Below are positions 4,094 through 55,505 of a DNA stretch of 64,000 bases, in pieces. Numbering within the stretch: the stretch's first letter is position 1; every line of letters starts with the position of its first letter. Source of the DNA: Dehalococcoidia bacterium (lineage in GTDB: Bacteria; Chloroflexota; Dehalococcoidia; Bin125). A program made the position numbers and the translations under genes. The stretch is from positions 937,619-1,001,618 of the forward strand of contig OZ242037.1 of NCBI GenBank assembly GCA_965205165.1, read 5' to 3'. Under the pieces are notes generated by a model that had not been told where the DNA came from, made no database searches, and was given only the letters and a program-made list of their open reading frames with translations.

Positions 4094-4110
4094 TCGCGCC
4101 CAATTGCGCC

Positions 4111-5007: not shown

Positions 5008-5057
5008 TTGAAGGAACCATGACGCGATTCAGCCCTCCAACGCCCGCGTGATCCCGC

Positions 5058-5652: not shown

Positions 5653-5814
5653 GTACCGGCTGCACGACCACTCGCGGGATGATGCTGGAGGGTTCGGGGA
5701 CGCCAAGGGCGAGATTCGCGTCAAGGGCGGCGCGCACTTGCTGAACCACTGCAACGCGCTGATCCATTCGGCCGGCCGGCGATCCGGCCGTTGATCGGGC
5801 GGTAGCCTGAGCGG

Positions 5815-6510: not shown

Positions 6511-6518
6511 GCGAGCCG

Positions 6519-7667: not shown

Positions 7668-7686
7668 TGTCCGCGGGCGGGGTCGT

Positions 7687-8562: not shown

Positions 8563-8776
8563 CGCCAAGGCGGGCGACGGGGGGATTCGAACATGATGGG
8601 ACGCCCGGCGCGGGCCTTCCGCGCCGCTTCGCGGGCGCGCCGGACCTCTTCAATCGCGTCATACCAGTCCGCGGCGCGTTTGCGCTCTTGACCCTGCCGC
8701 TTGATTGCTGCTGCCATTGCGAGGATCCTTCCGCACCCTCATTGTGCCAGATGCCGGGCGCAGCGGCGCAAGCAGG

Positions 8777-9103
8777 TCATCCGGACTTGCCCAAACGCTG
8801 CTTGAGCCAGCGGGGCAGGCTGAAGCCGTCTTGCTGGATGTTGAAGAGGGCGCGGAGTTCGGCGCCGGTGGGTTCGGTGGCCGCGTGTTCGCCGTTGATC
8901 AGGATGGTCGGGGTGCTGCGGTAGCCGTTGTTCAGCTCGATGCAGTGCTCGGCTGCGGATTCATCCTCGTCGATGTCGATCGCGGCGTGGGGGATGCCGT
9001 GCTCTTCGAGGAAGCGCTGGGCGCTGCGGCTCTGAGGGCACCATTCGGTCGTGTAGATCACGACTTCGGGCGCTGGCGGTTCGGGGTCCGGCTGCGTGCT
9101 CAT
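8777..9103 (-). CDS. glutaredoxin-like / mycoredoxin-NrdH family thioredoxin-fold protein (CxxS active site)
   Basis: 108 aa. VVIYTTEWCPQSRSAQRFLEEHGIPHAAIDID...TPTILING matches a glutaredoxin fold with a monothiol CPQS site. Confidence 0.7.
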   Translation of the reverse strand: MSTQPDPEPPAPEVVIYTTEWCPQSRSAQRFLEEHGIPHAAIDIDEDESAAEHCIELNNGYRSTPTILINGEHAATEPTGAELRALFNIQQDGFSLPRWLKQRLGKSG

Positions 9104-9112
9104 GGGGGCAGG

Positions 9113-13147: not shown

Positions 13148-14440
13148 GTGCCCGACATCCGCGATTACTGCGACCGACTGTGGAACGGGGAGATCGACAC
13201 GGTGCGCGAAGCGCACCCGATCGGCGGGATGTGGAACGACCGCGAAACGGACGAGATCGCGGACGGGCTGCTCTACTACAAGTCGGTCTCTTCCGCGAAC
13301 ACCTTCGACGCCGGCGACGGGCTGGTGATGGTCGACACGGGCGGGGAGCGCGATGCGGAGAACATCCACGCCGGCGTCCGCCGCTGGCGGCCCGACGCGC
13401 CCCTGAGGGCGGCGATCTACTCGCACCACCACGTCGATCACACCTTCGGCGTCGGCCCGTTCGACGCGGAGGCGGGGACGCCGATCCCGGTCTACGCGCA
13501 CGAGGCGATCCCCGAGCACTTCGACCGCTACCTGCGCACCATCGGCTACAACACGGCGATCAACTCGCGCCAGTTCTTCCGCCCCGGCATGAGCGCCGAG
13601 TTCCGCCTCCCCTGGCCCGAGCAGTACCGCTACCCGGACGTGACCTTCCGCGACCGCCTCGATCTGCGGATCGGCGAGCTGACCTTCGAGCTGCACCACG
13701 CCCGCGGCGAGACCGAGGACGCGGTCTGGACCTGGGTGCCCGAACGCTCGGTGCTCTGCCCGGGCGACCTGTTCATCTGGGCCGTGCCCAACGCGGGCAA
13801 CCCGCAGAAGGCGCAGCGCTGGGTCGGCGAATGGGCGGCCGCGCTGCGCAAGATGGCATCACTGGGCGCGGAAACGATGCTGCCCGGCCACGGCTTCCCG
13901 ATCTTCGGCGCCGACCGCATCGCGCAGGCTCTGAACGACACGGCCGAGCTGCTGGAGTCGATCGAGAACCAGACGTTGGCGCTGATGAACGAGGGCTGTT
14001 CGCTCAACCGCATCCTGCACGAGGTCGAAATGCCCGCGCACCTGCTCGACAAGCCCTACCTGCGCTCGGCCTACGACCACCCGGAGTTCATCATCCACAC
14101 CGTCTGGCGCTACTTCGGCGGCTGGTACGAGGGCGAACCCGACCGCCTGATGCCCGCCCCGCGCGGCGCGGAAGCAGCGGAATGGGTCGCCCTCGCCGGC
14201 GGGATCGGCCCGGTCCTGGAGCGCGCCCGCGCCCTGCTCGACGCGGGCGATCTGGTCATGGCCAGCCACATCATCGAGGGCGCGGCCGCCGCCGGCCCCG
14301 CGAACGCCGAAACCCACGCGCTCCGCGCCGAGATCTACGACCGCCGCGCCGCCGCCCAAGATTCGAGCATGGCCCGCGGCATCTTCGCCTTCGCCGCCTC
14401 CAGCAGCCGCGAAGGCAAGCGCGACGCCTTCAGCGGCTAA
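13148..14440 (+). CDS. MBL-fold metallo-hydrolase, alkyl/aryl-sulfatase-like (N-terminal MBL plus dimerisation domain; no SCP2 tail)
   Basis: HHHVDHTFG and MLPGHGFPIFG are MBL motifs. PYLRSAYDHPEFIIHTVWRYFGGWYEGEP matches the alkyl-sulfatase dimerisation domain. Putative GTG start at 13148 within track ORF 12242..14440. Confidence 0.7.
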   Translation: MPDIRDYCDRLWNGEIDTVREAHPIGGMWNDRETDEIADGLLYYKSVSSANTFDAGDGLVMVDTGGERDAENIHAGVRRWRPDAPLRAAIYSHHHVDHTFGVGPFDAEAGTPIPVYAHEAIPEHFDRYLRTIGYNTAINSRQFFRPGMSAEFRLPWPEQYRYPDVTFRDRLDLRIGELTFELHHARGETEDAVWTWVPERSVLCPGDLFIWAVPNAGNPQKAQRWVGEWAAALRKMASLGAETMLPGHGFPIFGADRIAQALNDTAELLESIENQTLALMNEGCSLNRILHEVEMPAHLLDKPYLRSAYDHPEFIIHTVWRYFGGWYEGEPDRLMPAPRGAEAAEWVALAGGIGPVLERARALLDAGDLVMASHIIEGAAAAGPANAETHALRAEIYDRRAAAQDSSMARGIFAFAASSSREGKRDAFSG

Positions 14441-15948
14441 ATCCGCATCCGCCGATTCTCGTATCCGAGCGGCATCGGCAGGTCCGGCAACCTGCCGTCG
14501 AAGTAGTCCTCGATGCTCCAAATCTGGAGCTTGCGGTACTCGCGCCCCAGCACCTCCGTGAACCCGGCGGTGACCGCTTCTTCTTCCATCCCCGCGGTGA
14601 ACGACGCCGCGTCCATCACGGCGAATACGCCCAGATCGGCGCCGGCGTCGGCCATCGCGGCCTTGAAGGCGCGGACATCGCCGCGAGCGGTGCGGCCGGC
14701 TTTGACCTGCATGACGACCGTCCCGTATTCGGTCCTCGCGCCCTTGCCGCGCCCTTCGGATTTCACGTAGCGCATGCGGCCGTCTATTCCGCCGTCGCCG
14801 GTCTGCCGCTTGTTGGGGCGGAAGCCGGTGACCCGCGTGACCGCCCACGTCTCGAATTGGAATGGCTGCGCCGCGAGCAGGCGGGCCGACGCGAGATCCT
14901 CGGGCGCCCCGATCACATCCGCCTCGGCGCCCAGCGCCTGCATCCGTTCCTCGACCAAGCCGACGGCCAAGTGCGTGATGTCCACGCCGACCCAGCGGCG
15001 ATCGTTCTTCAGCGCCACGGCCATGGCGGTGCCGCAGCCGCAGAACGGGTCCAGCACCAAGTCCCCCTCGTTGGACGAAGCGAGGATGATCCGCTCCAAC
15101 AGCGCCTCCGGCTTCTGCGTGGGGTAGCTCAGCCGCTCTTTCGCCTGCGGATTGAGAATCGGGATCTCGAAGACGTCAAACGCGGGAGTTCCCTCGTGAT
15201 CGCGGTACACGACGCGGTCGTAGTCGTCGGGATCCACGTCGCCGCGCTCGACAGCCGCCTCGAACGTCTCGGCATCCTCGACGATGATCTGGCGCTTGCG
15301 CTCGCCACCGCTCTCGTAGGTGTTTGTGTTCCAGCCGCGCGCCATCGGCGCCCGGGTCGGCGAGGTGGGGACGTACAGCTGGTTGAACACGACATCGTCG
15401 GACCTTCCGTAGAACAGGATCACGTCGTGCATCCGCTGGAATCGCTTCGCGGCCGCCGCCCAGCGGCGGTAGAACCAAACGATCTCGTTGCGGAAGTTCC
15501 CCGCCCCGAACACCGCGTCCATCAGGATCTTGAGATAGTGGCTCGCGGTCGGGTCGCAGTGCAGGTAGATCGAGCCGCTCGGCTTGAGCACGCGGTGCAG
15601 CTCCGCGAGCCGGATCGCCATCATCGCCAGATACGCCGTCATCTGATTGGTGCCCAACGCGGACACGAGCGAGTCCAATAGCGCGCCCGCCCGGGGCGAC
15701 GGCGAATCATCCCGCAGCAACTCCTCGAGCGCGCGCTGCGACTCCGCACCCCAATGCCAAGTGTCGACGAACGCCTCGATCTGGGCTTGCGGAGCGCGCC
15801 CCGACTCATCCCGGAAGAGCACGTTGTAGGTGGCATTCGAGTTGAACGGCGGATCCAAGTAGACGAGATCGACCGATTCATCGGGAAAGTGCTCGCGCAG
15901 CACCTCCAAGTTGTTGCCGTAGAACAGCTTGCCATGCAGATCATCCAT
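14437..15948 (-). CDS. beta-class N4/N6 DNA methyltransferase fused to a C-terminal Mrr-type (PD-(D/E)xK) restriction-endonuclease catalytic domain
   Basis: 503 aa. Motif IV DPPFNS precedes motif I VLDPFCGCGTAM, the beta-class order. The C-terminal ~140 aa (GDGGIDGRMRY...VMQVKAG...VFAVMDA...KLQIWSIEDYFDG) matches Mrr_cat. Stop codons overlap with the sulfatase-like gene. The start lies 13 nt after the original TPK stop. Confidence 0.8.
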   Translation of the reverse strand: MDDLHGKLFYGNNLEVLREHFPDESVDLVYLDPPFNSNATYNVLFRDESGRAPQAQIEAFVDTWHWGAESQRALEELLRDDSPSPRAGALLDSLVSALGTNQMTAYLAMMAIRLAELHRVLKPSGSIYLHCDPTASHYLKILMDAVFGAGNFRNEIVWFYRRWAAAAKRFQRMHDVILFYGRSDDVVFNQLYVPTSPTRAPMARGWNTNTYESGGERKRQIIVEDAETFEAAVERGDVDPDDYDRVVYRDHEGTPAFDVFEIPILNPQAKERLSYPTQKPEALLERIILASSNEGDLVLDPFCGCGTAMAVALKNDRRWVGVDITHLAVGLVEERMQALGAEADVIGAPEDLASARLLAAQPFQFETWAVTRVTGFRPNKRQTGDGGIDGRMRYVKSEGRGKGARTEYGTVVMQVKAGRTARGDVRAFKAAMADAGADLGVFAVMDAASFTAGMEEEAVTAGFTEVLGREYRKLQIWSIEDYFDGRLPDLPMPLGYENRRMRI

Positions 15949-17303: not shown

Positions 17304-17976
17304 TCCCCGCCCAGGGCAGCCGCCGCTGGCGGAAGTGGTGGGTGGCGAACGCCTTGCCGGTCCCGATGCGGATCATCGCGCGGTCGTTGATCAGTTCGTT
17401 GCTGATGCCTTGGGCGCGGCCGCGTTCGAGCGTTGCGTTCGAGAGCGACCACTTGAGGCCGACGGTTTCGACGCCTTCGATGCGGTCGGTGATCGGGATG
17501 ATGCCCGCGTAGTCGCCCGGCGCGCCGTGGAAATGGGTTTCGCGCACGCCGTCGCCGTGCAGGACGGTGATCGCGGTCCAGCCGTCCACGGCCCAGGTCG
17601 GGATGCCGCGCAGGCGGTCGCCGGCGAGCAGTTCGAGGTTGCCGAGCTCGTGGTCGAGGCGGTCGCCGCCGAAGACGCCGAGCGCGATTAGGGAGGTCGC
17701 GCCGCGGGCCAGCGCTTCTGCAATGGCGACATCGGCGTCGGTGCGCTGCTGCGGGGCGGGATGCGGGACGATGGCGGCGCCGGCCGCGCGGTGATCGGCC
17801 AGTTCGTCCGGGCTGAGCGAGTCGAAGTCGCCGATCAGCACGTGCGGGGCTATGCCCAGCGCGGCGAGGCGGCGCGCGCCGCCGTCGGCCGCGACGATCA
17901 AGCCGGCCCCGTCGAGCGCGGAGCGGACGAGCGCCGAGTCGTCGATCCCGCCGCCCAGGGCGACGACGGCCTGCAT
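17275..17976 (-). CDS. thiamine pyrophosphokinase
   Basis: MQAVVALGGGIDD...LIVAADGGARRL...HVLIGDFDS matches the TPK catalytic and thiamine-binding domains. The last 12 codons are encoded by sequence outside repeat copy B, so the C-terminus differs from the orphan copy. Confidence 0.8.
   Translation of the reverse strand: MQAVVALGGGIDDSALVRSALDGAGLIVAADGGARRLAALGIAPHVLIGDFDSLSPDELADHRAAGAAIVPHPAPQQRTDADVAIAEALARGATSLIALGVFGGDRLDHELGNLELLAGDRLRGIPTWAVDGWTAITVLHGDGVRETHFHGAPGDYAGIIPITDRIEGVETVGLKWSLSNATLERGRAQGISNELINDRAMIRIGTGKAFATHHFRQRRLPWAGITPASRSSR
17314..17381. repeat. 68-bp direct repeat copy B (inside the functional TPK gene)
   Basis: Identical to 15964..16031 except for one T/C difference. 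Confidence 0.9.
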
Positions 17977-17994
17977 CGGCGCGGGGGCGCGGCG

Positions 17995-19206
17995 CTAGTC
18001 GGCCGTAGCGGGCTCCGCGGCCCGCTCGGCCGCGCCGTTGAGCGCGGCGACGCCCTTGGCGAACTCCTCCGGCATCTCCTTGCCGCCGTCCGCGAACGCC
18101 CGCGCCATCGCCTTCGTGCCCGCGCCGAAGATGTCCAGCTGCCGATCCTCCACGAAATCGCGCGATTCCACGATGCGGTCGATCTGCCCTTGGAAGCGCG
18201 GCGCGACGTAGCGCATGAAGAGCTCGTAGGAGCGTCGCGTGGCGTCGCTCGACGCCCATTCATGCGCCATCCCCATCAGCCCGCCGACGCCGCCGGAGCG
18301 CTCGTGCAGCGCCTCGACCTGCTCGATCACGTCGTCGACGCCGCCGACCAGCACCTCGTTGCGCTCGATCGCCTCCTCAATCGTCGGGGCCTGGTTGGCG
18401 AAGAGGCCGCCGCGCCGGCCCTCGTCGCGCACGTCGCCGATGTAGGCGCGGCCCTTGTAGCCCTCCGCCACGTCGGCGATCGCCTGCTCGCGCGTCTCGG
18501 CGACGTGGATCGGCACGACGGCCCGCCAGTCGGCGCGATCGGCGGCGTGCCCGTTCTCCGCGGCCGCCTCCGCGTACCAGTCCCAGACCCGGGTCAGCCC
18601 CTCCGGGTCCGAGGTGCCGGCGACGGAGAGCATGCCGGCGCCGAACTTGCCGGCCAGCTGCGGGCCGGAGGGCGTGAGGATCACGGCGACGGCCAGTTCC
18701 GGGTGCGGGTCGGAGAACCAGGCCATCTGCAGCCGCGCCTCGGTCAGCGAGAACCAGTCCGTCTCCATCGTGACCGGCTCCGGGCTGGTCGCCAGCTGCA
18801 CGATCGCGTCGAAGCCCTCGTGCATGCGGCGGCGCTGCTCCTCGGGCGGGATGCCCATCTGCACCGCATCCGAGGTGAGCGCGCCGGGGCCGACGCCGAG
18901 CATCGCCCGCCCGCGGGTCATGTGGTCGAGCTGCAGCAGATCGTCGGCGATCATCAGCGGGTGGTGGTAGGGGATCGAGACGACGCCGGTGCCGAGCCGG
19001 ATGTGCCTGGTGCGCTGCGCGGCCGCGGCGATGAAGATCATCGGGTTCGAGATCAGCTCGCGCGCGAACGAGTGGTGCTCGCCGATCCAAGCCTCGTCGT
19101 AGCCGAGATCGTCGAGCAGCTCGATCAGCTCCAGATCGCGCTGGAGCGCCAGCGTGGGGTGCTCGCCGACCCGGTGGAAGGGCGCGAGGAAGATGCCGAA
19201 CTTCAT
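17995..19206 (-). CDS. LLM-class flavin/F420-dependent oxidoreductase (luciferase-like monooxygenase)
   Basis: MKFGIFLAPFH...LGYDEAWIGEHH... is the TIM-barrel LLM family. Start taken at the internal ATG at 19206. Confidence 0.8.
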   Translation of the reverse strand: MKFGIFLAPFHRVGEHPTLALQRDLELIELLDDLGYDEAWIGEHHSFARELISNPMIFIAAAAQRTRHIRLGTGVVSIPYHHPLMIADDLLQLDHMTRGRAMLGVGPGALTSDAVQMGIPPEEQRRRMHEGFDAIVQLATSPEPVTMETDWFSLTEARLQMAWFSDPHPELAVAVILTPSGPQLAGKFGAGMLSVAGTSDPEGLTRVWDWYAEAAAENGHAADRADWRAVVPIHVAETREQAIADVAEGYKGRAYIGDVRDEGRRGGLFANQAPTIEEAIERNEVLVGGVDDVIEQVEALHERSGGVGGLMGMAHEWASSDATRRSYELFMRYVAPRFQGQIDRIVESRDFVEDRQLDIFGAGTKAMARAFADGGKEMPEEFAKGVAALNGAAERAAEPATAD

Positions 19207-19397
19207 CTTGCGGGGTCGCCAGGACATTGCGCTGCTCCAGTTCACGCGGCCGCCGCGCGGCCGCAGTCGAGGGTAACGGGAGCACCGCGCTCCGCGCCGG
19301 GAAACGCGCCGCCCGACGAGGGCGTTCCGATTCTGTTAGTTTCGGGCGAAACATCGGAGCAGCCGCCCGTTCGGCGGGCGGGTTGGGAGCGAGCACG

Positions 19398-21107
19398 ATG
19401 AGCAGGCGCGAAATGTGGGACCGGATCCGCGGCGATCGGCTGTCGAGGCGCTCGCTGCTGGCCGCATCGGGACGGGCCGGATTGGGCGCGGCCGGGCTGG
19501 CGCTGGTCGGCTGCGGCGATGATGACGACGATGACGCGCAACAGCAGGCGGCGGCGCAGCAGTCATCGGACGCGCAAGCGTCCGGGACCGCGGCGGCGGA
19601 TCAGCAGGAACAGCAGCAGCAGGCCCAGCCGGCCGCGGCCGCGGGCGGGCCGCAGCGCGGCGGCGTGCTGCGGATCGGCTCCGACCTTTCGCTCACCACC
19701 TACCGGGCCCCCTACCTCTCCTCCTCGGCCCACATCCCGCTCTACATCCCCTTCTGGGACACCCTGACCAAGTACTCGCCCAACGGGCTCGACCCGCAGC
19801 CCCACCTCGCCGAGTCATGGGAGTTCAACGACGACCAGACGATGCTCGAGGTGAAGCTGCGCCCCGGCCTCGAGTTCCACAACGGCAAGTCGATGACCGC
19901 GACCGAGGTCAAGAAGAGCCTCGAGGCGATGGACGACGAGGGCACCGCCAACAACCAGGTCAAGGGCATCTTCACCAAGTACGTCGAGAGCGTCGATGCG
20001 ATCGACGACACGACGCTGCAATTCAACCTCGCCTGGAGCGGCACGCTGATCTTCGACGTGCTCAACTACGCGCAGATCCACGACGCCGATTCGATCGCGA
20101 AGCTGGACGACTATGCGGAGCTGAACGGCAGCGGGCCGTTCAAGTTCGACCCGACCGCCTACCGCGTGGACGAGTTCTCGCGCGGCGAGCGCTTCGAGAA
20201 CTTCTACGACCCGGCCCTGCTGGACGGCGTCGAGCTGCACGCCTTCTCCGACGCGGCGGCGATGTCGCTGGCGCTCAACGCGGGCGAGATCGACCTCACC
20301 AACCGGCTGCCCAAGCAGGACTACGACCGCTACAACGCCGACCCCGATTTCGAGGTCGTGGTCGCGCCACCCACGCTCGCGATCTGGGTGCTCGGCATGG
20401 TCATCCCCAACGAGAACGGCGGCCACGAGGCGTTCGACAACCCCAAGGTGCGGCAGGCGCTCTACCGCATCGTCGACCGCAAGCGGATCGCCGAGGAGAC
20501 CTTCGCCGGCCTCGCCCAGCCCAAGAACATCCTTTGGCCCTCCTTCTCGCCCGGCTACGACGCCGCCCGCGACCGCGACTACTTCGACCCCGAGGAGGCG
20601 GCCCGGCTGCTCGAGGAGGCCGGCTACGGCCCCGGCGAGCTGACCATCGAGCTGGCCCACAGCGGCGGCGAGGCGAACGAGATCTCGCAGGTGATCCAAG
20701 CCGGCGCGGCCGAGGCGGGGATCAACATCAACATCCAGCTGCTCGAAGCCGCCGTCGCGCGCGAACGCTTCCTCGGCGCCGGCAACGAGGCCTACCTCTC
20801 CTCCTACGCCTTCTTCGCCCTGCACCCGCAGACCCTGCCGGTGATGAACTTCCAGATGCGCATCCCCAACTCCTGCGCCTACGGCCCCGACTACTACCAG
20901 GAGCTGATCGACAACTTCGGCACCGCCGACACCGACGCGCGCCGCAACGCGCTGCTGGAAGAGTTCAACACGATCCTCGACAACGAGCCGTGGATCGCGC
21001 CGATCGTCACCCGCAGCGACGTCTGGGCCTGGGCCTCCAAGGTCAACGGCGTCGAATTCGACGTGCTCAGCATCCCCTCGATGCAGAAGATCTGGATGGA
21101 CGCGTAG
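19398..21107 (+). CDS. ABC transporter substrate-binding protein, family 5 (Opp/Dpp/Nik-like); Tat signal plus lipobox
   Basis: MSRREMWDRIRGDRLSRRSLLAASG...LVGCG gives a twin-arginine motif and a Cys lipobox. A Gln/Ala-rich linker follows, then the SBP_bac_5 body. Confidence 0.85.
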   Translation: MSRREMWDRIRGDRLSRRSLLAASGRAGLGAAGLALVGCGDDDDDDAQQQAAAQQSSDAQASGTAAADQQEQQQQAQPAAAAGGPQRGGVLRIGSDLSLTTYRAPYLSSSAHIPLYIPFWDTLTKYSPNGLDPQPHLAESWEFNDDQTMLEVKLRPGLEFHNGKSMTATEVKKSLEAMDDEGTANNQVKGIFTKYVESVDAIDDTTLQFNLAWSGTLIFDVLNYAQIHDADSIAKLDDYAELNGSGPFKFDPTAYRVDEFSRGERFENFYDPALLDGVELHAFSDAAAMSLALNAGEIDLTNRLPKQDYDRYNADPDFEVVVAPPTLAIWVLGMVIPNENGGHEAFDNPKVRQALYRIVDRKRIAEETFAGLAQPKNILWPSFSPGYDAARDRDYFDPEEAARLLEEAGYGPGELTIELAHSGGEANEISQVIQAGAAEAGININIQLLEAAVARERFLGAGNEAYLSSYAFFALHPQTLPVMNFQMRIPNSCAYGPDYYQELIDNFGTADTDARRNALLEEFNTILDNEPWIAPIVTRSDVWAWASKVNGVEFDVLSIPSMQKIWMDA

Positions 21108-21144
21108 CGCCGCCGCAGCGTCCGGCCGGAGAAGGGAACGACCG

Positions 21145-22887
21145 ATGAGCGATCGCGGCTACTGGGAGCGGATCCGAACCGAGCGGATGGGCCGCCGATC
21201 GCTGATGGGCGCGGGCGCCCGCGCCGCCGTCGGCGCGGCCGGCATGGCCCTCGTCGGCTGCGGCAGCGACGACGACCAGCAGCAGGCGCAACAGGCCCAG
21301 CCCGAGCCCGCGGCGGCCGCGCAGCCGCAGCAACAGCAGGAGCAACCCGCTCCGCAAGAGCAGCAGGCCGAACCGCAGACGGCCCCTTCCGGCGCCATCG
21401 CCTACAAGGACGACGGCGTCCGCAAGAAGGGCGGCGTCCTCCGCGCCGGCTGGGCCAACGGCTCGCCCGCGATCTACCTCGCCCCATACGCCGCCTCGCC
21501 CGACACCGTCTTCTACCCGGCCCTCTGGGACACCCTGACCAAGTACGACTCCGAGGGCCTCAACCCGCAGCCGCACCTCGCCGAATCCTGGGAGTTCAAC
21601 GACGACCAGACGATGCTGATGGTCAAACTGCGCCCCGGCCTCGAATTCCACAACGGCAAGCCGATGACCGCCGAGGAGGTGCGCAAGAGCCTCGAGCGGA
21701 TGGACGACGAGGACGTGGCCAACAGCCAGGTCCGCTCGATCTACAACAAGTACGTCAGCGAGGTCACCGCCGTCGACGACACGACCCTGCAGTTCGACCT
21801 CGCCTGGCCCGGCACCACGATCTTCGACGTGTTCCAGTGGGCGCAGATCCACGACGCAGACGACATCGAGGGTCTCGAAGGGCTGGTGCGCGTCAATGGC
21901 AGCGGGCCCTTCAAGTGGGACCCCGACGCCTACGAGGTGGACGTCTACTCGCGCGCCGACCGTTTCGAGAACTTCTACGAGCCGGCCAACCTCGACGCGA
22001 TCGAGTGGCACATCTTCCAAGATTCGGATTCCATGTCGCTGGCGCTGCAGAACGGCGAGATCGACCTCACCCACCATCTGCCCAAGGCGTTTCACGCGGG
22101 CCTGAACCCCGATCCCGACTACAACCTGCAGCTGGCCCCGCCGACCGGCTCGATCTGGGTGCTCGGCATGGTCGGCACCGGGCGCGGCGGCGGCCATCCG
22201 ATGATGGACGACCCCACCGTGCGGCGGGCGCTCTACCGCTGCATCGACCGCAAGCGGATCACCGAGGAGCTGTTCGAGGGGCTCGCCTCCGTCAAGAACG
22301 TGGTCTGGCCCTCCTTCTCGCCCGCCTACGACGAATCGCTCGACGTCGACTACTTCGACTTGGACGAGGCCAAGCGGCTGATCACCGAAGCGGGCTACCC
22401 CGACGGCACCCCGACCCTTCCCATCGCCTGCCAGGCGGCGCGCGAGGAGGGCATCCAGATCGCCCAGATCATCCAATCCGACGCCGCCAAGGCCGGAATC
22501 AACGTCGAGCCGCAGCGGATCGAGAGCGCGACCTGGATCGAGCAGTTCCTGGCCGGCACCCACGAGGCGATGTACGTCTCCTTCTACGGCTTCTACGCGC
22601 TCCACCCGCAGTCGCTGCCGGTGATGAACTTCCAGATGCGCATCCCCAACTCCTGCGCCTATGAGACGCCCCACTACCAGGCCATGATCGACGGCTGGCC
22701 GACCGCGGACTCGGAGGCCAAGCGCCAGCAGCTGCTGGACGACTTCAACAAGATCCTGGACGAGGAGCCGTGGGTCTCGCCGATCTCGACGACCGTCCAG
22801 ATCTGGGCGATGCAGTCCAACGTCAAGAACCTCTGGTACGACATCACCGGCATCCCGCGCATGCACCACGTCTACTTCGACGGCTAG
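21145..22887 (+). CDS. ABC transporter substrate-binding protein, family 5 (paralogue of the upstream SBP); Tat signal plus lipobox
   Basis: MSDRGYWERIRTERMGRRSLMGAG...LVGCG, followed by a Q-rich linker. Long colinear similarity to the 19398..21107 protein (e.g. PQPHLAESWEFNDDQTML, MNFQMRIPNSCAY). Confidence 0.85.
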   Translation: MSDRGYWERIRTERMGRRSLMGAGARAAVGAAGMALVGCGSDDDQQQAQQAQPEPAAAAQPQQQQEQPAPQEQQAEPQTAPSGAIAYKDDGVRKKGGVLRAGWANGSPAIYLAPYAASPDTVFYPALWDTLTKYDSEGLNPQPHLAESWEFNDDQTMLMVKLRPGLEFHNGKPMTAEEVRKSLERMDDEDVANSQVRSIYNKYVSEVTAVDDTTLQFDLAWPGTTIFDVFQWAQIHDADDIEGLEGLVRVNGSGPFKWDPDAYEVDVYSRADRFENFYEPANLDAIEWHIFQDSDSMSLALQNGEIDLTHHLPKAFHAGLNPDPDYNLQLAPPTGSIWVLGMVGTGRGGGHPMMDDPTVRRALYRCIDRKRITEELFEGLASVKNVVWPSFSPAYDESLDVDYFDLDEAKRLITEAGYPDGTPTLPIACQAAREEGIQIAQIIQSDAAKAGINVEPQRIESATWIEQFLAGTHEAMYVSFYGFYALHPQSLPVMNFQMRIPNSCAYETPHYQAMIDGWPTADSEAKRQQLLDDFNKILDEEPWVSPISTTVQIWAMQSNVKNLWYDITGIPRMHHVYFDG

Positions 22888-22943
22888 CGGGCAACGGGCC
22901 GGCGGAAACCTGAACGGCGAGGATCAACGGAAAGCGGCGGCGC

Positions 22944-23900
22944 GTGGGCAGGTACCTGATCCGCCGCTTCCTCGAAGGCGTGCTCGTCGTCTTCCTGGCC
23001 AGCATCGTCATCTTCCTGATCATCCGCCTGATCCCCGGCGACCCCGCGCAGCAGCTCGCCGGCGAGGATGCCACGCTCGAGGACGTCGAGCGCGTCCGCG
23101 AGCAGCTCGGCCTCAACGACCCGTTCCTGGCCCAGTACTGGAACTGGATCTCCGGCGCCGTCCAGCTCGACTTCGGGCGCTCCTTCACCAAGCGGGTCGA
23201 GGTGCGCGACCTGGTCGCGCAGTCGTTCCCGCCCACGATCGAACTGGCCGTGGCCGCCTACCTCTTCGCGCTGATCGTCGGCGTCCCGCTCGGCATCGCC
23301 GCCGCCGTCTGGGCCAAGAAGCCGCCCGATTACGGCGCGAGCATCTTCAACATCCTCACGCTGGGCATCCCCAATTTCGTGCTCGGCATCATCCTGCTCT
23401 GGGTCTTCGCGGTCGAGCTGGACTGGTTCCCCGTGTCGGGCCGGGTCAGCGTGTTCGATGATCCGCTGCAGGGCCTGCACCGGCTGGTGCTGCCGATGAT
23501 CGCGGCCGGCGCGACCATCGCCGCCGTGCTGGCCCGCTTCGTGCGCACCTCGGTGGCCGAGGCGCTGGCGCAGGACTACGTGCGCACCGCCCGCGCCAAG
23601 GGCCTGCGCTCCAGCCGCGTCGTGCTCTCGCACGCGCTGCGCAACGCGCTGATCCCGATCGTCACCATCGCCGCGCTCCAGATCGGCAACCTGCTCGCCG
23701 GCGCGATCGTGGTCGAGATCGTCTTCACCCGGCCCGGCTTCGGCAACCTGATCATCGACGGCATCGTCGGCCGCGACTACCTCGTGATCCAGGCGATGCT
23801 CGCCATCCTCGTCTTCCTCTTCGTCGCCGCCAACACCGCGGCCGACATCACCTACGGCTACCTCGACCCCCGCATCCGCGTCTCCGGGCTGCGCTCATGA
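22944..23900 (+). CDS. ABC transporter permease (DppB/OppB-like)
   Basis: 318 aa, six TM segments, BPD_transp_1 features. Confidence 0.85.
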   Translation: MGRYLIRRFLEGVLVVFLASIVIFLIIRLIPGDPAQQLAGEDATLEDVERVREQLGLNDPFLAQYWNWISGAVQLDFGRSFTKRVEVRDLVAQSFPPTIELAVAAYLFALIVGVPLGIAAAVWAKKPPDYGASIFNILTLGIPNFVLGIILLWVFAVELDWFPVSGRVSVFDDPLQGLHRLVLPMIAAGATIAAVLARFVRTSVAEALAQDYVRTARAKGLRSSRVVLSHALRNALIPIVTIAALQIGNLLAGAIVVEIVFTRPGFGNLIIDGIVGRDYLVIQAMLAILVFLFVAANTAADITYGYLDPRIRVSGLRS

Positions 23901-24793
23901 GCGCCTTCGATCCCCCCGTCGCCCGCCCCTGGCTGCGCCGCATGCGCGATCAGTCGCTGACCGTGGACGCCTTCTACCGCACGGTCACCAACCCGCAGGG
24001 GTTCATCGGCGTGGTGATCTTCGGCGGGCTGATCCTGCTGGCGATCTTCGCCGACCTGATCGCGCCCTACGGCGAAGCCGAGCAGATCCGCGGCGCGCGC
24101 CTGCTCTCGCCCACCTCCGAGTACTGGTTCGGCACCGACGACCTCAACCGCGACATGTTCAGCCGCATCCTCTTCGGCCTGCGCATCTCGCTCTACGTCT
24201 CCGTCGCCGGCGTGCTCGGCGGCGGCGCGGCCGGCACCATCATCGGCTTCCTCGCGGGCTACGCCGGCGGCTGGCTCGAAACGATCCTGATGCGCCTGGT
24301 CGACACCCTGCTCGCCTTCCCCTTCCTGCTGCTCGGCATCGCCGTGCTCGCGATCCTGGGCACCGGCACCGAGCAGGTCGCGCTGGCGCTGGGCATCGCC
24401 AACGTGCCCGTCTTCGCCCGCATCGCCCGCGCCCAGCTGCTGACCGAGAAGGAGCGGGACTACGTGCTCGCCGCCCGCGCCATCGGGGCGGCGCCGGGCC
24501 GGATCATCTGGCGCCACATCGCCACCAACGCGCTGCCGCCGCTGCTGGTGCAGGGCGCGCTGGCCATGGCCTTCGCCGTGATCGCCGAAGCCACGCTCAG
24601 CTTCCTCGGTCTCGGCGCGTCCCCGCCGACGCCGACGCTGGGCATCATCCTCGCCGACGGCCGCCGCTGGCTCTTCGCCGGCGCCTGGTGGTTCGTGCTC
24701 TTCCCCACCTTGGGCCTCAGCCTGATCCTGCTCTCCCTCAACTTCGTCGCCGACTCCGTAGTCGAAGCCATTGACCCCCACCGCCGCCACTGA
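23897..24793 (+). CDS. ABC transporter permease (DppC/OppC-like)
   Basis: 298 aa. 4-nt overlap with the upstream permease. Confidence 0.85.
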   Translation: MSAFDPPVARPWLRRMRDQSLTVDAFYRTVTNPQGFIGVVIFGGLILLAIFADLIAPYGEAEQIRGARLLSPTSEYWFGTDDLNRDMFSRILFGLRISLYVSVAGVLGGGAAGTIIGFLAGYAGGWLETILMRLVDTLLAFPFLLLGIAVLAILGTGTEQVALALGIANVPVFARIARAQLLTEKERDYVLAARAIGAAPGRIIWRHIATNALPPLLVQGALAMAFAVIAEATLSFLGLGASPPTPTLGIILADGRRWLFAGAWWFVLFPTLGLSLILLSLNFVADSVVEAIDPHRRH

Positions 24794-24842
24794 GCCGCGG
24801 CGGTAGAATCACGATGGCGGCCCGACCGCCGGAGGAACCGCC

Positions 24843-25298
24843 ATGGCCACCCGCGAGCAGATCGGCGAGGGAACCCCCAGCCGCCCCGCCAAGCGCCGAT
24901 GGCGCTTCCCCTTCCGCCCCATCCACCGTCTCGAACCCGGCCCCGACCAAGAGCTCTACACGTCGGCCCTCGCCCCCGGCTGGTGGAAAGACCTCTTCAA
25001 GCGCCCGCGCCGCCTGAAGCCGGGACCCGATCAGGAGCTGTACACATCAGCGCTTTCACCCGGTTGGTGGCGCGATCTCTTCAAGCACCCTCCGAAACCA
25101 AAGGCCGGACCCGGGCAAGAGATGTACTACACCGGGTTCTCGCCCGGCTGGTGGAAATACCTCTTCAAGCGCCCCCCGAAGCCCAAGGCCGGACCCGGTC
25201 AGGAGATGTACTACACCGGGTTCTCACCCGGCTGGTGGAAGTACCTCTTCAAGCGCCCCCCGAAACCCAAGGCCGGACCCGGGCAGGAGATGCATTGA
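24843..25298 (+). CDS. tandem-repeat protein of unknown function (4.3 x 28-aa repeats, GP(D/G)QE(L/M)Y..(S/A)PGWW(K/R).LFK.P.KPKA)
   Basis: Strong RBS (ggagga) 8 nt upstream of the ATG. Four 84-bp tandem DNA repeats differ mainly at synonymous sites. Confidence 0.6.
   Translation: MATREQIGEGTPSRPAKRRWRFPFRPIHRLEPGPDQELYTSALAPGWWKDLFKRPRRLKPGPDQELYTSALSPGWWRDLFKHPPKPKAGPGQEMYYTGFSPGWWKYLFKRPPKPKAGPGQEMYYTGFSPGWWKYLFKRPPKPKAGPGQEMH
24938..25298 (+). repeat. 4.3 tandem copies of an 84-bp unit (coding repeat inside the 24843..25298 CDS)
   Basis: Units begin ggccccgaccaagag / ggacccgatcaggag / ggacccgggcaagag / ggacccggtcaggag. Copies 3 and 4 are near-identical. Confidence 0.85.
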
Positions 25299-25305
25299 TC
25301 CGGCC

Positions 25306-25857
25306 TCATGCGGCCACGGCGGCGATGGCAGAGACGCTGACCGCGAGCGCCGCTGCCCATACCAGAACGAGCGATGCATTGCAGAAACTCCGCTTGAGGC
25401 GGAGGGGCTCGGTGTTCGCGGAGATCGCGTCGCGCACTTGAGCGGATGCCCATTCGACCAACTCCGGCAGCTGGAGCGATGCACCTTGCCGTGCGAGGGC
25501 GCCACTGTCGGGCGCGTCCACCAAATCGCCGAATGCGATGTAGGCGTACATGGCGACGGTGATGCCGGCGCTGGTGAGCAAGGCGATGATCACCACGGCG
25601 GCGATGAGCGCGGGGGAGAAGATGCTCTGCTCCGACGCGCGGTCGGCGAAGAAGATCGCGGCGGCCAGCAGGGCGATCAGCGCGGCGCTGAACCGCATCG
25701 AGGTTTCCAGCTTGCGGTCGATCAGCTCCGCCAGCGCCAGCTGCGAAGCCAGCCGCCGTTCGAGCCGCTCATAGACGAATAGCGCCCGCCGGGCGCGCTG
25801 CCCGGCCCCCTGCGCATCGGGGTCTTCCGCCGCGGGATCCTGCTCGTCGCCGTTCAC
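25306..25857 (-). CDS. hypothetical membrane protein
   Basis: 183 aa with two or three hydrophobic helices (AALIALLAAAIFFA; IAAVVIIALLTSAGITVAMYAYIAF). Convergent with the repeat protein. Confidence 0.45.
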   Translation of the reverse strand: MNGDEQDPAAEDPDAQGAGQRARRALFVYERLERRLASQLALAELIDRKLETSMRFSAALIALLAAAIFFADRASEQSIFSPALIAAVVIIALLTSAGITVAMYAYIAFGDLVDAPDSGALARQGASLQLPELVEWASAQVRDAISANTEPLRLKRSFCNASLVLVWAAALAVSVSAIAAVAA

Positions 25858-25950
25858 GGCGGCAGTCTATGTCCCGAGCCGCCCGTGCCGGGTCTGCGGG
25901 TATCCTTGCAGTTCGCGCGGCGCGGGCCGCGAACCCGGGAGTTCGGCGGC

Positions 25951-27654
<1,704 letters not shown>

Positions 27655-32345: not shown

Positions 32346-34259
32346 TCAGACGGAGCCTCGGGGAACGTTGAGTTCGCCAAGGTCGGAGAGTTCGGGGCTC
32401 AGGGGCGCGACGACGGAGCGGGGCGCGGAGGTGTTCGGAGCGGCCCCCGCGGCGGCGAGTTCGCGGTCGAGGCGGGCCTGTTCGAGCAGCCAGCGACGAT
32501 GGCGGGCGATGGCGGCCTCCGGGTGCTCGTCGCCGATGTACTGCTCGATGTAGCCGCGCTGGTCGAGCGGGTCCAAGGGGTCGTTGAGGCGGGCGCGGCC
32601 GTGTTCCTGTATGGCGATGCGCTGGGCCTGGCTGTAGGGGTCGATGCGGACGTCGATGTCGAGCGAGGGGATGCGGGCGGGGTCGACGCCGACGATGGTG
32701 TCGCGCAGGACGCGGCCCTCGCGGGTGCAGGCGAAGACCCAGACGGGCTCGCCGAAGCCGCCGAGCGGGGCGGGCTTGGACATGACCATGGCCATGTTGC
32801 GGAGCATGATGCGGGCGGCGCGGGCCTGCTGGCGCTTGAGGTGCTGGACTTGGGAGTTGCGCGCGGAGAGGAGCAGGTTGAGGGTGTGGGGCTGCGTGTT
32901 GGGGCCGGCTTCGCCGCGCAGGATCGCGCCGGTGTCGGGAGCGGCGGCGGCGAGGTCCTCGTTGGCGAGGCGGAGGAATTCGATGAAGGCGGGGTCGAAG
33001 GGGAATTCGACCTTTTCGAGCGATGCGCCGGCGGGGAGGTTGCGCGCGGCCGCAGCGGAGGCGGTGAGTTCGACGCGGGTGCCGCCTTCGGCATCGGTCT
33101 CGTAGCCGCCTTCGGCGAGGCGGATCCAGTAGAGCGGGACGGCGGCCTGCTCGGCGATGACGCGGGCGAGGGAGCGGTCGTAGTCGAAGGTCGGCTTGAC
33201 GCGGTAGACGCCCTCGAGCAGCGGCTCCCAGCGGCGGACGGGGTCGGGATGATCGTTGACGTCGGAGGGGGCGAGGGCGAAGGGCGGCATTTCGTAGGGG
33301 TGGCCGTGGGACTTGACGAGCGTCCAGCCGCCGGCGGCGGGGGCGGCGAGTTCGTAGTAGCGGGAGCGGGTCCAGACGGAGGCGACGCGGACGCGGTCTC
33401 CCCAGCCCGCGGCGGACGGGTCGCCTGCGACGGGGGCGTCGCCGGGCTCGGCGAGTTGGAGGCGGGGGCGGCCGCGTTCGCGGCCGAGGGCGAGCCGGAG
33501 GCGATCCTGGCGGGCGAGGGCGGCTTGGTAATCGGAGAGGGCGACCTCGCGGAGAACGAGCGCGACGCCGATGCCGTTGGGCGCGAGGCGGTCTTCGATG
33601 AAGGCGAACTGGTCGGGGCGGACGACTTCGATGCGCCAGGGGAAGCCGGCTTCGGCCTTGCGGCGGCGGTCGCGCTCGCGGCGGCTGCCGGCGCATTCGA
33701 CGAGGCGGCCGCGCTGGTCACGGAAGCGTCGGCGCTCGTCGGGATCGGAGGGGGCGCGGCTGCGGGTTTCGGGCTGCGGGAAGGGCGGCAGCCGATCGAA
33801 GGCGCGCTGCCAGTGGAGGACGCCGTAGCAGAGGCAGACTTGGCCGTAGGCGAGTTCGCCTTGGATGCCGGCGCCGGAGCGCTCGTCGGCGAGGACGAGG
33901 CCGTGCTCGAAGACCTGTTCGAGGTCGTTGGCGGCGGCGCGGGCCCGCTCGGAGTCGTTGGGCGGTTCGACATGGACGCGGAGCGGGTGCTCGCGCAGGC
34001 GGACGCGGAGTTCGGACCAGGCGCGGCGGGCGGCGTCGGTCTGCCAGCCGCCGAAGTCCTCGAAGGGTTCGGGCAGGCGCGGGTCGGCGGAGGGCGAGTT
34101 GAAGAGGTGCTGCTCGCGGGCGCGGATGCGCTGGTGGAGGGGGCCGAAGCGGGAGCCGGCGGGGGATGCGCCGCCGGCGAGTCGGTCGATCAGCGCGGTC
34201 AGCTGGTCGAGGCTCATGGGCGGTTCGGCGGCGGTGCGGGCTTTGGTGCTCGGCATCAT
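32346..34259 (-). CDS. large hypothetical protein (~638 aa), no recognisable domain
   Basis: Long ORF with a coding-like composition that is not Arg/Pro junk. AGGAG RBS upstream of the ATG at 34259. The overlapping same-strand off-frame ORFs 32095..33696 and 32399..33973 are low-complexity artefacts. Confidence 0.6.
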   Translation of the reverse strand: MMPSTKARTAAEPPMSLDQLTALIDRLAGGASPAGSRFGPLHQRIRAREQHLFNSPSADPRLPEPFEDFGGWQTDAARRAWSELRVRLREHPLRVHVEPPNDSERARAAANDLEQVFEHGLVLADERSGAGIQGELAYGQVCLCYGVLHWQRAFDRLPPFPQPETRSRAPSDPDERRRFRDQRGRLVECAGSRRERDRRRKAEAGFPWRIEVVRPDQFAFIEDRLAPNGIGVALVLREVALSDYQAALARQDRLRLALGRERGRPRLQLAEPGDAPVAGDPSAAGWGDRVRVASVWTRSRYYELAAPAAGGWTLVKSHGHPYEMPPFALAPSDVNDHPDPVRRWEPLLEGVYRVKPTFDYDRSLARVIAEQAAVPLYWIRLAEGGYETDAEGGTRVELTASAAAARNLPAGASLEKVEFPFDPAFIEFLRLANEDLAAAAPDTGAILRGEAGPNTQPHTLNLLLSARNSQVQHLKRQQARAARIMLRNMAMVMSKPAPLGGFGEPVWVFACTREGRVLRDTIVGVDPARIPSLDIDVRIDPYSQAQRIAIQEHGRARLNDPLDPLDQRGYIEQYIGDEHPEAAIARHRRWLLEQARLDRELAAAGAAPNTSAPRSVVAPLSPELSDLGELNVPRGSV

Positions 34260-34518
34260 TCGGACTCCTGGCTGCGGGCGGCGCGCGAACATATGCCGAC
34301 CTGCCCGCTTTGTCAAACTGATGTTCTATGTGATGGGGCGGCTGTGGAATGCGGGGATAACGGGGACGGCGGCCCATTGGAGCGGGGCGGAGGCCGGCGC
34401 GGCGGCGATCGCGCCGCGACCCTGCGGGGAGCGGGATGCGCTGTACCATTAAGGCGCTGAAAGCGAAGGAGCGGCTGGCCTTGCGGGCCGCCGCGGTGCC
34501 GGTGAAGTTGGATGGCTG

Positions 34519-38354: not shown

Positions 38355-38651
38355 ATGCCGCTCCAGCGGATCCGGGCCCGCGCCTTCGAGCAGGCCGCCG
38401 GGGCCGCATCGGAGCTCGCGGCGGAGGCGATCCGCCTGCCCGAAGGCCGCACGCTGCTCAATCGCCAGGCGGAGGCGGCTTCGGCCCTGATCGTCGTGGA
38501 CGGCGCGCTGCGGATCGGGGTGATCGACGACGACGCGGAGCTGGAGCAGGGCGAGGGGGTGCTGCTGCCCAAGGGCGCGACCTACTCGGTGCGCGCCTCG
38601 ACGGACGCGCTGGCGTTCGTCTTCTCGCTGCCGACCGCGGGAGCGGCCTGA
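38355..38651 (+). CDS. small cupin-domain protein
   Basis: 98 aa, beta-rich (ALIVVDGALRIGVID...GATYSVRA). Confidence 0.4.
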   Translation: MPLQRIRARAFEQAAGAASELAAEAIRLPEGRTLLNRQAEAASALIVVDGALRIGVIDDDAELEQGEGVLLPKGATYSVRASTDALAFVFSLPTAGAA

Positions 38652-38664
38652 CGGCGCGGGCGGG

Positions 38665-39072
38665 TCAGAGCGCGCCCAAGTCCGCCAGTTCCGGCTCGCC
38701 GTCCAAGGTCGTCGAGAAGACGAACGGTCGGGGCTGGCCCGCATCGATCTCCCGTAGCCAATCCCAGCGCTGCATGAGGAACTGCAGCACCTCGAAGTTC
38801 GACGGATTGGCGACTTGGAGGACCACCATCCCGACATCGTGCCGGATGAGCTGCTCCAACTCTGGCGGGCTGGAGAGGATCCGGCGGTCCCGCGTCACGG
38901 CCAGCCATCCCGCGCCGCCCACTGCCGCGAGCCACTCTTCGTCGGTCACCGTCCGCCCGGTTCGCAGCGTTTCGGGAAAGAGCGTGAAGACGTTCGCAAC
39001 ATCGCGGATGCCGAGGCTGAACAGCGCGAGCGCGATTCGGTGCGAGATGTTCTGGTCCAAGAACAACTTCAT
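38665..39072 (-). CDS. DUF5615-family PIN-like nuclease (putative toxin)
   Basis: MKLFLDQNISHRIALALFSLG... is the characteristic N-terminus of Mut7-C/PIN-like DUF5615. 4-nt overlap with the upstream DUF433 gene. Confidence 0.6.
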   Translation of the reverse strand: MKLFLDQNISHRIALALFSLGIRDVANVFTLFPETLRTGRTVTDEEWLAAVGGAGWLAVTRDRRILSSPPELEQLIRHDVGMVVLQVANPSNFEVLQFLMQRWDWLREIDAGQPRPFVFSTTLDGEPELADLGAL

Positions 39073-55340: not shown

Positions 55341-55413
55341 CTTCTTCTTTACGGTGCCCGCTGGCGCAGCCAGCCCGGGTGCCGAATCCGAGTGGCGGAG
55401 TGAGTCTGGTGGA

Positions 55414-55487: not shown

Positions 55488-55505
55488 CGGACGTTCGGAA
55501 TGGGC

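Follow-up and report, generated by a model that had tools for sequence, protein, structure and literature searches.

A stretch of 64,000 nucleotides from a Dehalococcoidia bacterium (contig OZ242037.1), hereafter called the window, contains a small gene whose product carries tandem 28-residue repeats. We have little doubt that this is a real protein-coding gene. Comparison with its relatives indicates that what has been conserved is the pair formed by this gene and a convergent gene for a 183-residue membrane protein (hereafter, the partner), not an association with the neighbouring ATP-binding cassette (ABC) transporter. The 3' portions of both genes fall into one segment of about 460 bp, two anciently separated classes of which segregate among strains that are otherwise nearly identical. 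The two genes are probably coupled in function, and below we discuss how the small protein might act at the membrane together with its partner, and which other readings of the data should be weighed.

About 14 distinct variants of the small gene, comprising relatives found by searching and loci recovered via the partner gene (designated here by L numbers), sort into three subfamilies that share the N-terminus MATRE[QRH][IL]GG/EG and the core of the repeat unit. They occupy three genomic contexts. The gene follows oppC, encoding an OppC-like permease, in the window and in L001, L002, L007 and L009-L011; it follows a CoA-transferase gene in L003, L006, L014, L016 and L017; and L012 has it between a luciferase-like gene and the first of the solute-binding protein genes. 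In every locus with enough flanking sequence, across all three contexts, a convergent gene for a partner homologue of 180-183 residues is found. It is because of this constant companion, absent from the original prediction, that we regard the pair as the unit of conservation. The original prediction had instead placed the small gene directly after ABC permease genes, which is correct for the window; as a link it fails, since the gene follows ABC genes only in the window's subfamily. The ABC connection thus appears incidental, and the reading of the small protein as an accessory subunit of an ABC importer was dropped, as the adjacency is not kept in relatives.

Two loci illustrate the varying position of the pair. 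In L012, an open reading frame (ORF) of the small family (5521-5820, minus strand; 99 residues, MATREHLGG...; uncalled in the public record), with one partial and two full 29-residue units, is located at the other end of this ABC operon and shares 32 nt with the 3' end of its convergent partner. In L006, the same operon (90% nucleotide identity) is 6.6 kb away from the small gene; oppC is followed there by a lower-GC insertion of about 5.3 kb (3334-8640), which holds a type II DNA methyltransferase gene (4003-5328, minus strand), and then by the CoA-transferase gene (8647-9951), whereas in the window the small gene comes directly after oppC. In the window 7 nt separate the two stop codons of the pair, and in L001 34 nt do so; in subfamilies ii and iii the genes overlap, by 32 nt. 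As seen in L003, L006, L014, L016 and L017, the final 32 nt of the small gene (protein tail ...RTPPRSPK) read, on the opposite strand, as the closing codons of the partner, which specify the end of its C-terminal transmembrane (TM) segment, ...SAIVAAFA; the overlap therefore codes on both strands.

The pair differs from its surroundings in divergence. For the permease, argS and trpS genes, synonymous divergence (dS) from the window is 0.02-0.10 in L001, L009 and L010, and up to 0.23 in the more distant L007, and for the small gene it is 0.17-0.58 against the same four loci. The partner shows dS of about 0.5 and non-synonymous divergence (dN) of 0.16 against L001, L007 and L009, versus 0.06 and 0.018 against L010, which carries the same class of segment as the window. 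In the comparison with L006, dS of the permease genes is 0.26-0.29, while the small gene has dS of 1.25 and dN of 0.44, and the partner 1.0 and 0.59, respectively. A 50-nt sliding comparison gives 50-65% identity to L001, L009 and L007 inside the allelic segment, against 94-100% in its flanks; identity of the segment to L010 and L002 is 92-100%. Strains carrying differing segments are 97-99% identical in the flanking genes. Within the partner, synonymous differences are saturated in codons 101-183 (proportion of differing synonymous sites 0.63-0.73; dN 0.33-0.36), and dS is 0.08-0.26 in codons 1-100.

In terms of the two types of repeat unit, A and B, segments of class 1 encode A-A units followed by an acidic tail (...PDADPEL), and those of class 2 encode B-B units with the tail GPGQEMR. 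The window combines A-A-B-B units with a class 2 segment, having an L009-like 5' part and an L010-like 3' part. Inside the segment dN/dS is about 0.12-0.26, so that both alleles are functional, and the pattern is one of allele replacement or maintenance, not of decay. A block of about 460 bp covering the 3' ends of two convergent genes and existing as two ancient alleles is an unusual population-level pattern; for these uncultured soil bacteria, it suggests selection of a balancing or frequency-dependent kind.

Evidence for the coding status of the small gene comes from several comparisons. Its frame contains 4.25 copies of the 28-residue unit (four full 84-bp units and a 7-codon partial one), in agreement with the roughly 4.3 tandem repeats in a 151-residue ORF that had been predicted; Tandem Repeats Finder reports, at 24975-25292, a period of 84 bp with 3.8 copies, 81% matches and a score of 346. 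The GC content of codon positions 1, 2 and 3 is 0.61, 0.55 and 0.82 in a window of 70.8% GC, and an alternative 180-residue frame (24899-25441) was rejected because its third-position value (GC3) is only 0.60. Units 3 and 4 differ by five nucleotides, all of them synonymous, and within-type comparisons elsewhere give 2 synonymous and 0 non-synonymous differences in L002 and 8 and 1 in L010. Between units 1 and 2, 11 codons differ synonymously and 7 non-synonymously, and between type A (units 1 and 2) and type B (units 3 and 4) the figures are 2-6 versus 9-12. The earlier statement that repeat differences are mostly synonymous is thus true only within a unit type and wrong between the types, where most changes alter the protein. 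Values of dN/dS among orthologues are 0.05-0.35, and about 14 variants have kept the ORF, its start, the Shine-Dalgarno sequence and a -10-like box, even where identity has fallen to 43-52%. Codons of the N-terminal octapeptide vary synonymously among the subfamilies (GCC/GCG, ACC/ACA, CGC/CGG, GAG/GAA); the approximately 25 residues that follow show no conservation between them. Purifying selection acts on the unit sequences in several independent alleles, and the view that selection operates on a protein, and not on a non-coding satellite, is sustained by GC3, the within-type synonymous bias and the conservation among the variants.

One might still suppose that the gene has no function of its own, being either a young, drifting ORF or, as far as the 4.25-copy array is concerned, an assembly artefact joining an A-A and a B-B strain. 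Indeed, no other record contains the exact 151-residue product, and GC3 of the gene is below the 0.85-0.97 of flanking genes. The comparison of copy number between strains, which had been recommended, revealed variation: there are 2 units in most relatives, 3 in L003, L006, L014, L017 and P0009, and 4.25 in the window alone, whose array resembles an A-A allele (L001, L009) joined to a B-B allele (L002, L010, L011), in keeping with the mixed affinity of its 5' and 3' parts. The B-B alleles of L002, L010 and L011 end in the same truncated unit as the window, in the form GPGQEMR. However, selection on the units in several alleles and the retention of the ORF across three subfamilies are difficult to reconcile with drift. 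As for a chimera, there are 3 sites at which the tail of unit 2 (CAC CCT CCG AAA CCA AAG GCC) departs from all B-unit tails of other loci; because this tail and several other codons are unique, and because B-B alleles have no B-type tail before unit 3 that a simple join could supply, the array does not appear to be a trivial product of such a fusion. We therefore consider an absence of function very improbable.

The composition of the small protein is unusual: 25 residues are Pro (17%) and 11% are Gly; there are 9 Trp, 8 Phe and 8 Tyr, and Cys, Asn and Val are absent. Its grand average of hydropathy is -1.14. The N-terminus, MATREQIGEGTPSRPAKRRW, contains no hydrophobic stretch, hence a signal peptide is not predicted, as had been stated before; a Tat signal (RRWRF) was considered and dropped, since no hydrophobic h-region follows it. 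The unit is 26-29 residues long in the family. Its core, P-G-W-W-[KR]-x-[LM]-F-[KR]-R, is invariant; it comes after E-[LMI]-[VIY]-[YH]-x-x-[FL] and before a Pro/Lys/Arg linker that varies in sequence and charge (RPRRLKP, HPPKPKA, RPRREP, RQTKP, RPKEP). In the window, the type A consensus (units 1 and 2) is GPDQELYTSAL[AS]PGWW[KR]DLFK. On a helical wheel of the core, the arc of 0-140 degrees is taken up by W, L, W and F, and K, K and R lie across from it. The AlphaFold model, itself of low confidence, has as its sole secondary structure short helices at the WWKxLF segments (residues 47-51, 75-80, 103-108 and 131-135) and one more at 39-43, before the first PGWW.

These features bring to mind short amphipathic membrane anchors. 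The hydrophobic moment of the core is 0.65-0.85 at a mean hydrophobicity of 0.47-0.74, and the anchor of Bacillus subtilis MinD (sequence from PMC13537761) has a moment of 0.52-0.63 on the same scale. For 9-mers of the B units, the Wimley-White interfacial energy comes to roughly -4.7 to -5.0 kcal/mol. An engineered tandem MinD amphipathic helix binds the membrane far more strongly than a single copy (PMC13537761), and it is on this ground that avidity may be expected of tandem units. Taking sequence, model and analogy together, we consider docking of the small protein on the membrane a possibility that falls just short of an even call. Among the roles suggested in the original prediction (nucleic-acid, membrane-surface or cell-wall binding), that at the membrane surface would fit best because the aromatic amphipathic core is invariant, whereas nucleic-acid binding is weakened, the basic tail being the least conserved part of the unit.

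The strongest competitor to membrane docking is binding of a polyanion. A disordered polycation with aromatic stickers (W, Y, F), K/R residues and Pro/Gly spacers could bind DNA, RNA or polyphosphate and form condensates; it would then be associated with the nucleoid, ribosomes or granules, and its membrane neighbour would be unrelated or only loosely related to it. All members are basic (pI 9.7-12, net charge of the whole protein +3 to +16), they are predicted to be disordered, their repeats would provide multivalency, and KRPPKPKA tails resemble H1-like basic repeats. On the other hand, it is the basic linker that is least conserved and the aromatic core that is invariant, some members have a net charge of just +3 together with acidic tails (PDADPEL), and neither the constant pairing with a membrane protein nor the allelic segment shared with it would be explained. 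We find this alternative distinctly unlikely.

The idea of a secreted module binding the cell wall or surface arises from a superficial likeness: GWWK...MYYTG recalls the GW.K...WYY of choline-binding repeats, and the aromatic GW...YY repeats of the small protein would behave like these or like GW modules. It was rated the least likely of the previously proposed roles because there is neither an export signal nor a match to CW_binding_1; moreover, no Pfam family matches at E<=1, no PDB sequence does, and the prediction is one of disorder, not of a beta-hairpin solenoid. The chance that we assign to it is almost negligible.

Could the units instead be peptides? The small protein might be an exported antimicrobial polyprotein from which cationic peptides are freed by proteolysis, the partner protecting the producer; the alleles would then reflect co-evolution of toxin and immunity. 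The tandem units and the strain-variable segment common to the small gene and the membrane-protein gene would agree with this, and the composition resembles that of Trp- and Pro-rich cationic antimicrobial peptides. Yet not only is a signal peptide missing, but so is a double-glycine leader of the usual length: only 8-9 N-terminal residues are conserved, and members of the window's group have GEG in place of GG. No dedicated exporter, C39 peptidase or protease was found in the three contexts, and the units have no obvious processing sites by them. The adjacent ABC system appears, from its solute-binding proteins, to be an importer and is not kept beside the pair. An antimicrobial polyprotein is, in our opinion, improbable.

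A related proposal would make the small protein a multi-core precursor of a ribosomally synthesized and post-translationally modified peptide (RiPP), with the N-terminus as a short leader and the units as cores crosslinked at aromatic or Lys residues (cyclophane- or darobactin/streptide-like). Multi-core RiPP precursors are known, and a conserved octapeptide followed by repeated units rich in W, K, F and Y would suit such an arrangement. We give it hardly any credence because no maturase gene was present in the neighbourhoods examined: no radical-SAM, YcaO, LanM, P450 or ATP-grasp maturase, peptidase or exporter occurs within 5-10 kb (window/L001, L012, L014, L016, L017) among the genes called in annotated or scanned loci and in about half of the 64-kb window (housekeeping genes), the neighbours of L006 having been partly scanned. 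The sole conserved neighbour, moreover, is a small membrane protein. A conserved N-terminus of 8 residues does exist, well below the length typical of leaders, and the units are not bordered by any conserved cleavage motif.

What, then, is this membrane protein? The partner has an acidic N-terminus (MNGDEQDPAAEDPDAQ), a long helix and hydrophobic segments at about residues 56-72, 82-108 and 160-183; the loop of about 50 residues between the last two contains the conserved pattern AP.S..L.R.G....L.EL[IV][ED]WAS...AI..N..L..K. Searches with a single sequence gave 4 clusters of relatives, and a profile search about 25. Like the small protein, the partner is an orphan: none of the family members has a Pfam domain above the cut-off. 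The PADLOC "2TM effector" model PDLC00685 is matched by 16 of the 25 members (E 0.0011-0.1), and single members match PycTM (E 1.3e-4) and two other 2TM effector models. The top Pfam match of any member is that of P0029 to SLATT_2 (17.6 bits, versus a cut-off of 25), and its alignment is co-linear, residues 37-144 lying on profile positions 36-136 of 192. The first two hydrophobic segments form a candidate two-TM hairpin between long helices predicted in a low-confidence model. This AlphaFold model is all-helical (pLDDT 49.5), and Foldseek against the PDB gave no match with E<0.6, returning designed helical bundles only. A relationship to SLATT/2TM membrane effectors is thus suggestive, but unproven.

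The explanation that we tentatively prefer would be as follows. The small protein would stay in the cytoplasm as an intrinsically disordered polycation, in which the core of each unit could fold into an amphipathic helix of two turns, one side of it lined by W, W, L/M and F and the other by K/R. Two to four tandem units would provide multivalent, avidity-driven docking on the inner face of the anionic membrane, as artificial tandem MinD anchors do. There, the small protein might act on or with the partner, most plausibly as a regulator or specificity partner of a SLATT/2TM-like effector, and the pair might serve in conflict, as a defence or addiction module on which selection of a diversifying or frequency-dependent sort would act. 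The parts of this proposal are not equally secure. Functional coupling of the pair is, as said, probable. A conflict module, suggested because the pair shares an anciently diverged segment and has moved between genomic sites, is doubtful. The proposal as a whole, namely a disordered polycation docking via WW[KR]x[LM]F[KR]R mini-helices, working with the partner and possibly belonging to a conflict-type module, is offered tentatively. Its boldest form is unlikely: an undescribed two-gene system of anti-phage defence or addiction, in which a membrane-tethered repeat regulator would exert allele-specific control over a pore-forming effector, matched C-terminal segments being exchanged and kept as ancient alleles.

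Genes of the methyltransferase/restriction type recur within 1-10 kb of the pair (window 14437-15948, L006 4003-5328, L017 2481-3800, L007 420-3191), which makes a weak case for a "defence-island" context. The one in the window (minus strand) encodes a 503-residue fusion of an N6_N4 DNA methyltransferase and an Mrr_cat-type restriction endonuclease; it has strong PADLOC MTase_II matches, and its Mrr_cat part is only a weak match, taken from the precomputed annotation of the L001 orthologue. Related methyltransferase or restriction endonuclease genes occur near the pair in L006, L017, L007 and L009.

A number of facts weigh against the proposal. Adjacency and co-divergence of neighbouring genes can reflect linkage alone, and one recombination import would give a shared segment without functional coupling. 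The 664-nt contig L005 contains the small gene without an adjoining partner gene. All data come from one narrow clade, so the evolutionary depth behind the conserved pairing is limited. Concerning docking, the amphipathicity of the core is weakly significant, as 6-21% of 9-mer shuffles reach it, and the AlphaFold model of the small protein, disordered and devoid of tertiary structure, is of low confidence (pLDDT 49.5). As regards the effector, every SLATT/2TM match of the partner family is below curated thresholds, the window's own partner protein gives no such match, and TM-rich sequences are known to draw spurious ones; the third hydrophobic segment of the partner is outside the 2TM definition, and no SMODS/CD-NTase, SLOG, cyclase, TIR or reverse transcriptase gene adjoins the pair in any of the contexts.

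If the proposal were true, the small protein would be a natural protein built almost wholly from tandem membrane-docking mini-helices. SLATT/2TM-type effectors, as a rule under the control of nucleotide-signalling enzymes, would gain in it a partner of a new kind. To our knowledge, almost nothing has been learned about conflict systems or small proteins of uncultured soil Dehalococcoidia. If the docking and module reading is wrong, a well-documented, narrowly distributed orphan family of repeat proteins would still be left.

The searches bear out the orphan status that had been assigned to the small protein, which seems to belong to a tiny, lineage-restricted family of uncultured soil Dehalococcoidia. 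A word-indexed search of 5.8e9 proteins returned relatives in 4 clusters, and an exhaustive HMMER profile search of 1.84e9 representatives returned four real relatives, all from one Dehalococcoidia clade; a search for the repeat unit in other proteins had been proposed. A GTDB scan found one genome, a Dehalococcoidia metagenome-assembled genome with a 2.6-Mb contig (L006), and none of 405 pattern matches in a JGI metagenome scan with family patterns was confirmed. Against Pfam-A (hmmscan), no family appeared at E<=1, and NCBIfam, PHROGs and PADLOC gave no match either; TraF_Ti (E 0.19), the sole entry in these scans, was dismissed as noise. A profile search of PDB sequences revealed no relative, an EGF-like scavenger receptor (E 0.43) being a chance match to PGWW. 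The 1261-residue public protein P0012, with repeats of about 70 residues, reached E 1e-8 through 16 weak stretches; it is translated satellite-like sequence and unrelated. Nothing was obtained by tblastn of the small protein against phage records, or of the partner homologue P0013, as sole query, against plasmid records. In the literature, we found no description of the family, only analogies (the tandem MinD helix, dehydrins, antimicrobial peptides).

Coordinates of the pair and its elements are collected in Table 1. The Shine-Dalgarno sequence, correctly predicted to be strong, has counterparts in all loci. The -10-like box recurs as cgTAGAATc or cgTAAGATc at a similar distance from the start in all three subfamilies (TAAGAT in L012), and it is kept despite differing upstream genes and surrounding intergenic DNA. 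This conservation would point to a promoter belonging to the small gene itself; it remains an inference because neither a complete -35/-10 pair nor a terminator emerged when 24600-26100 was scanned for sigma-70 and terminator consensus sequences. Tryptic digestion of the small protein would be expected to yield, for example, PPKPK-flanked peptides and AGPGQEMYYTGFSPGWWK.

Table 1. Elements of the small repeat-protein gene and its partner in the window
Feature	Position	Strand	Description
Small repeat-protein gene	24843..25298	+	151-aa ORF, ATG start; 17.7 kDa, pI 10.25, net charge +16
-10-like box TAGAAT	24804..24809	+	11 nt past oppC stop, 33 nt before ATG
Shine-Dalgarno GGAGGA	24831..24836	+	6 nt 5' of ATG; GGAGGA or GAAGGA in all loci
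Conserved N-terminus MATREQIG	24843..24866	+	MATRE[QRH][IL]GG/EG, shared by the three subfamilies
Repeat unit 1, type A	24939..25022	+	GPDQELYTSALAPGWWKDLFKRPRRLKP; near-identical to unit 1 of L001 and L009
Repeat unit 2, type A body with B-like tail	25023..25106	+	GPDQELYTSALSPGWWRDLFKHPPKPKA
Repeat unit 3, type B	25107..25190	+	GPGQEMYYTGFSPGWWKYLFKRPPKPKA
Repeat unit 4, type B	25191..25274	+	Same protein sequence as unit 3
Partial fifth unit GPGQEMH	25275..25295	+	Stop at 25296-25298
Partner gene	25306..25857	-	183-aa membrane protein, convergent with the small gene
Allelic segment, about 460 bp	~25090..25550		Covers the small gene's 3' portion and the last third of the partner gene (loop 2, last TM)

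The ABC genes preceding the pair (19227-24793 in the window, 4572-9951 in L001) comprise two SBP_bac_5 genes and two OppB/OppC-like permease genes, the stop codon of oppC being at 24791-24793. No gene for an OppD/F-type ATPase lies within about 10 kb on either side of these Opp/Dpp-like genes; the sole ABC ATPase in the scanned part of the window is of the TOBE-domain type (6249-7667). A role of the small gene as a Trp-codon attenuator or leader for the nearby trpS and argS was dropped, since these are separated from it by the convergent gene and, in relatives, the pair is found away from trpS.

Several further observations were made. In contig L005, the stretch 452-664 has a promoter-like site, TTGACA-N17-TACAGT, and then GC-rich, apparently structured sequence ending in a run of T; it has no match in Rfam at E<=0.01, and it may derive from a rearranged strain, a small RNA or a chimeric contig. 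In the window, a 656-residue ORF at 32346-34316 (minus strand; good coding statistics, GC3 0.90) has no Pfam or PADLOC match, and the same is true of its L001 orthologue (17349-19259). A PIN_10-domain protein of 135 residues (38665-39072, minus strand) is convergent with a 98-residue ORF without a Pfam match (38355-38651, plus strand); the two may be a toxin-antitoxin-like pair. An Rfam scan of the window found four tRNAs only, none of them in the small-gene locus: three lie within 330 nt at 55265-55592 (one on the plus and two on the minus strand), in a region (54232-56715) where no ORF passes the coding filter, and the fourth is 6 kb further on, at 61478-61549.

Individual ingredients of the pair are familiar from known systems. 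In its mode of action, the small protein would come closest to tandem amphipathic membrane anchors and to disordered repeat proteins whose segments fold upon contact with membranes. The cores of the small protein resemble the membrane anchors of MinD and FtsA in being short (8-11 residues) putative helices of the pattern phi-phi-K-x-phi-phi-K, with comparable hydrophobicity and moment. Unlike these anchors, to which they show no homology, they are Trp-rich and not attached to an ATPase or actin-like domain, the small protein being all anchors; it has 2-4 natural copies, each with an additional E-phi-phi-Y-x-x-phi half-unit, and its membrane binding is a prediction. Dehydrin K-segments, LEA proteins and the 11-mers of alpha-synuclein are disordered, with repeated Lys-rich amphipathic segments in varying copy number, and the small protein is likewise predicted to be disordered with repeated amphipathic segments. 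Those are eukaryotic or stress families with other motifs and no homology to it, whereas the small protein has a membrane-protein partner. Indolicidin, tritrpticin, the Trp domain of puroindoline and the apidaecin polyproteins share with it a composition rich in W, P, K and R and the use of tandem units; in contrast to such precursors, it is bacterial, probably cytoplasmic, and has no signal or leader, processing sites or exporter. With CW_binding_1 (PF01473) it has in common aromatic and Gly-rich tandem repeats of about 20-28 residues containing GW.K and YY, but not an HMM match, a signal peptide or predicted beta-hairpins. Finally, nucleoid proteins of the histone-H1-like and AlgP types have conserved Lys/Ala/Pro-rich basic repeats as their functional element; in the small protein it is the basic linker that varies and the aromatic core that is invariant, and some members have a net charge as low as +3.

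The partner, for its part, is similar to the SLATT/2TM/PycTM effectors of CBASS and Pycsar in having an N-terminal helix, a putative two-TM hairpin and C-terminal helices, in its strong variation between strains and in its location near restriction-modification genes; its sub-threshold matches are confined to SLATT/2TM/PycTM models, with no other TM families among them. It differs from those effectors in the extra C-terminal TM segment and in being accompanied by a convergent tandem-repeat gene instead of a cyclase, SMODS or SLOG gene. Organization of the pair departs from that of type II toxin-antitoxin operons, which are co-directional; here the genes are convergent, and the consensus scan found no terminator between them. 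A sharp boundary inside a gene, with unrelated alleles in different strains on its far side, and a variable block extending over two adjacent genes are features that the pair shares with CdiA-CT/CdiI and Rhs-CT/RhsI. However, those pairs are co-directional and include a large secreted toxin, whereas in our case two small convergent genes, with no detectable toxin domain, share their variable 3' ends.

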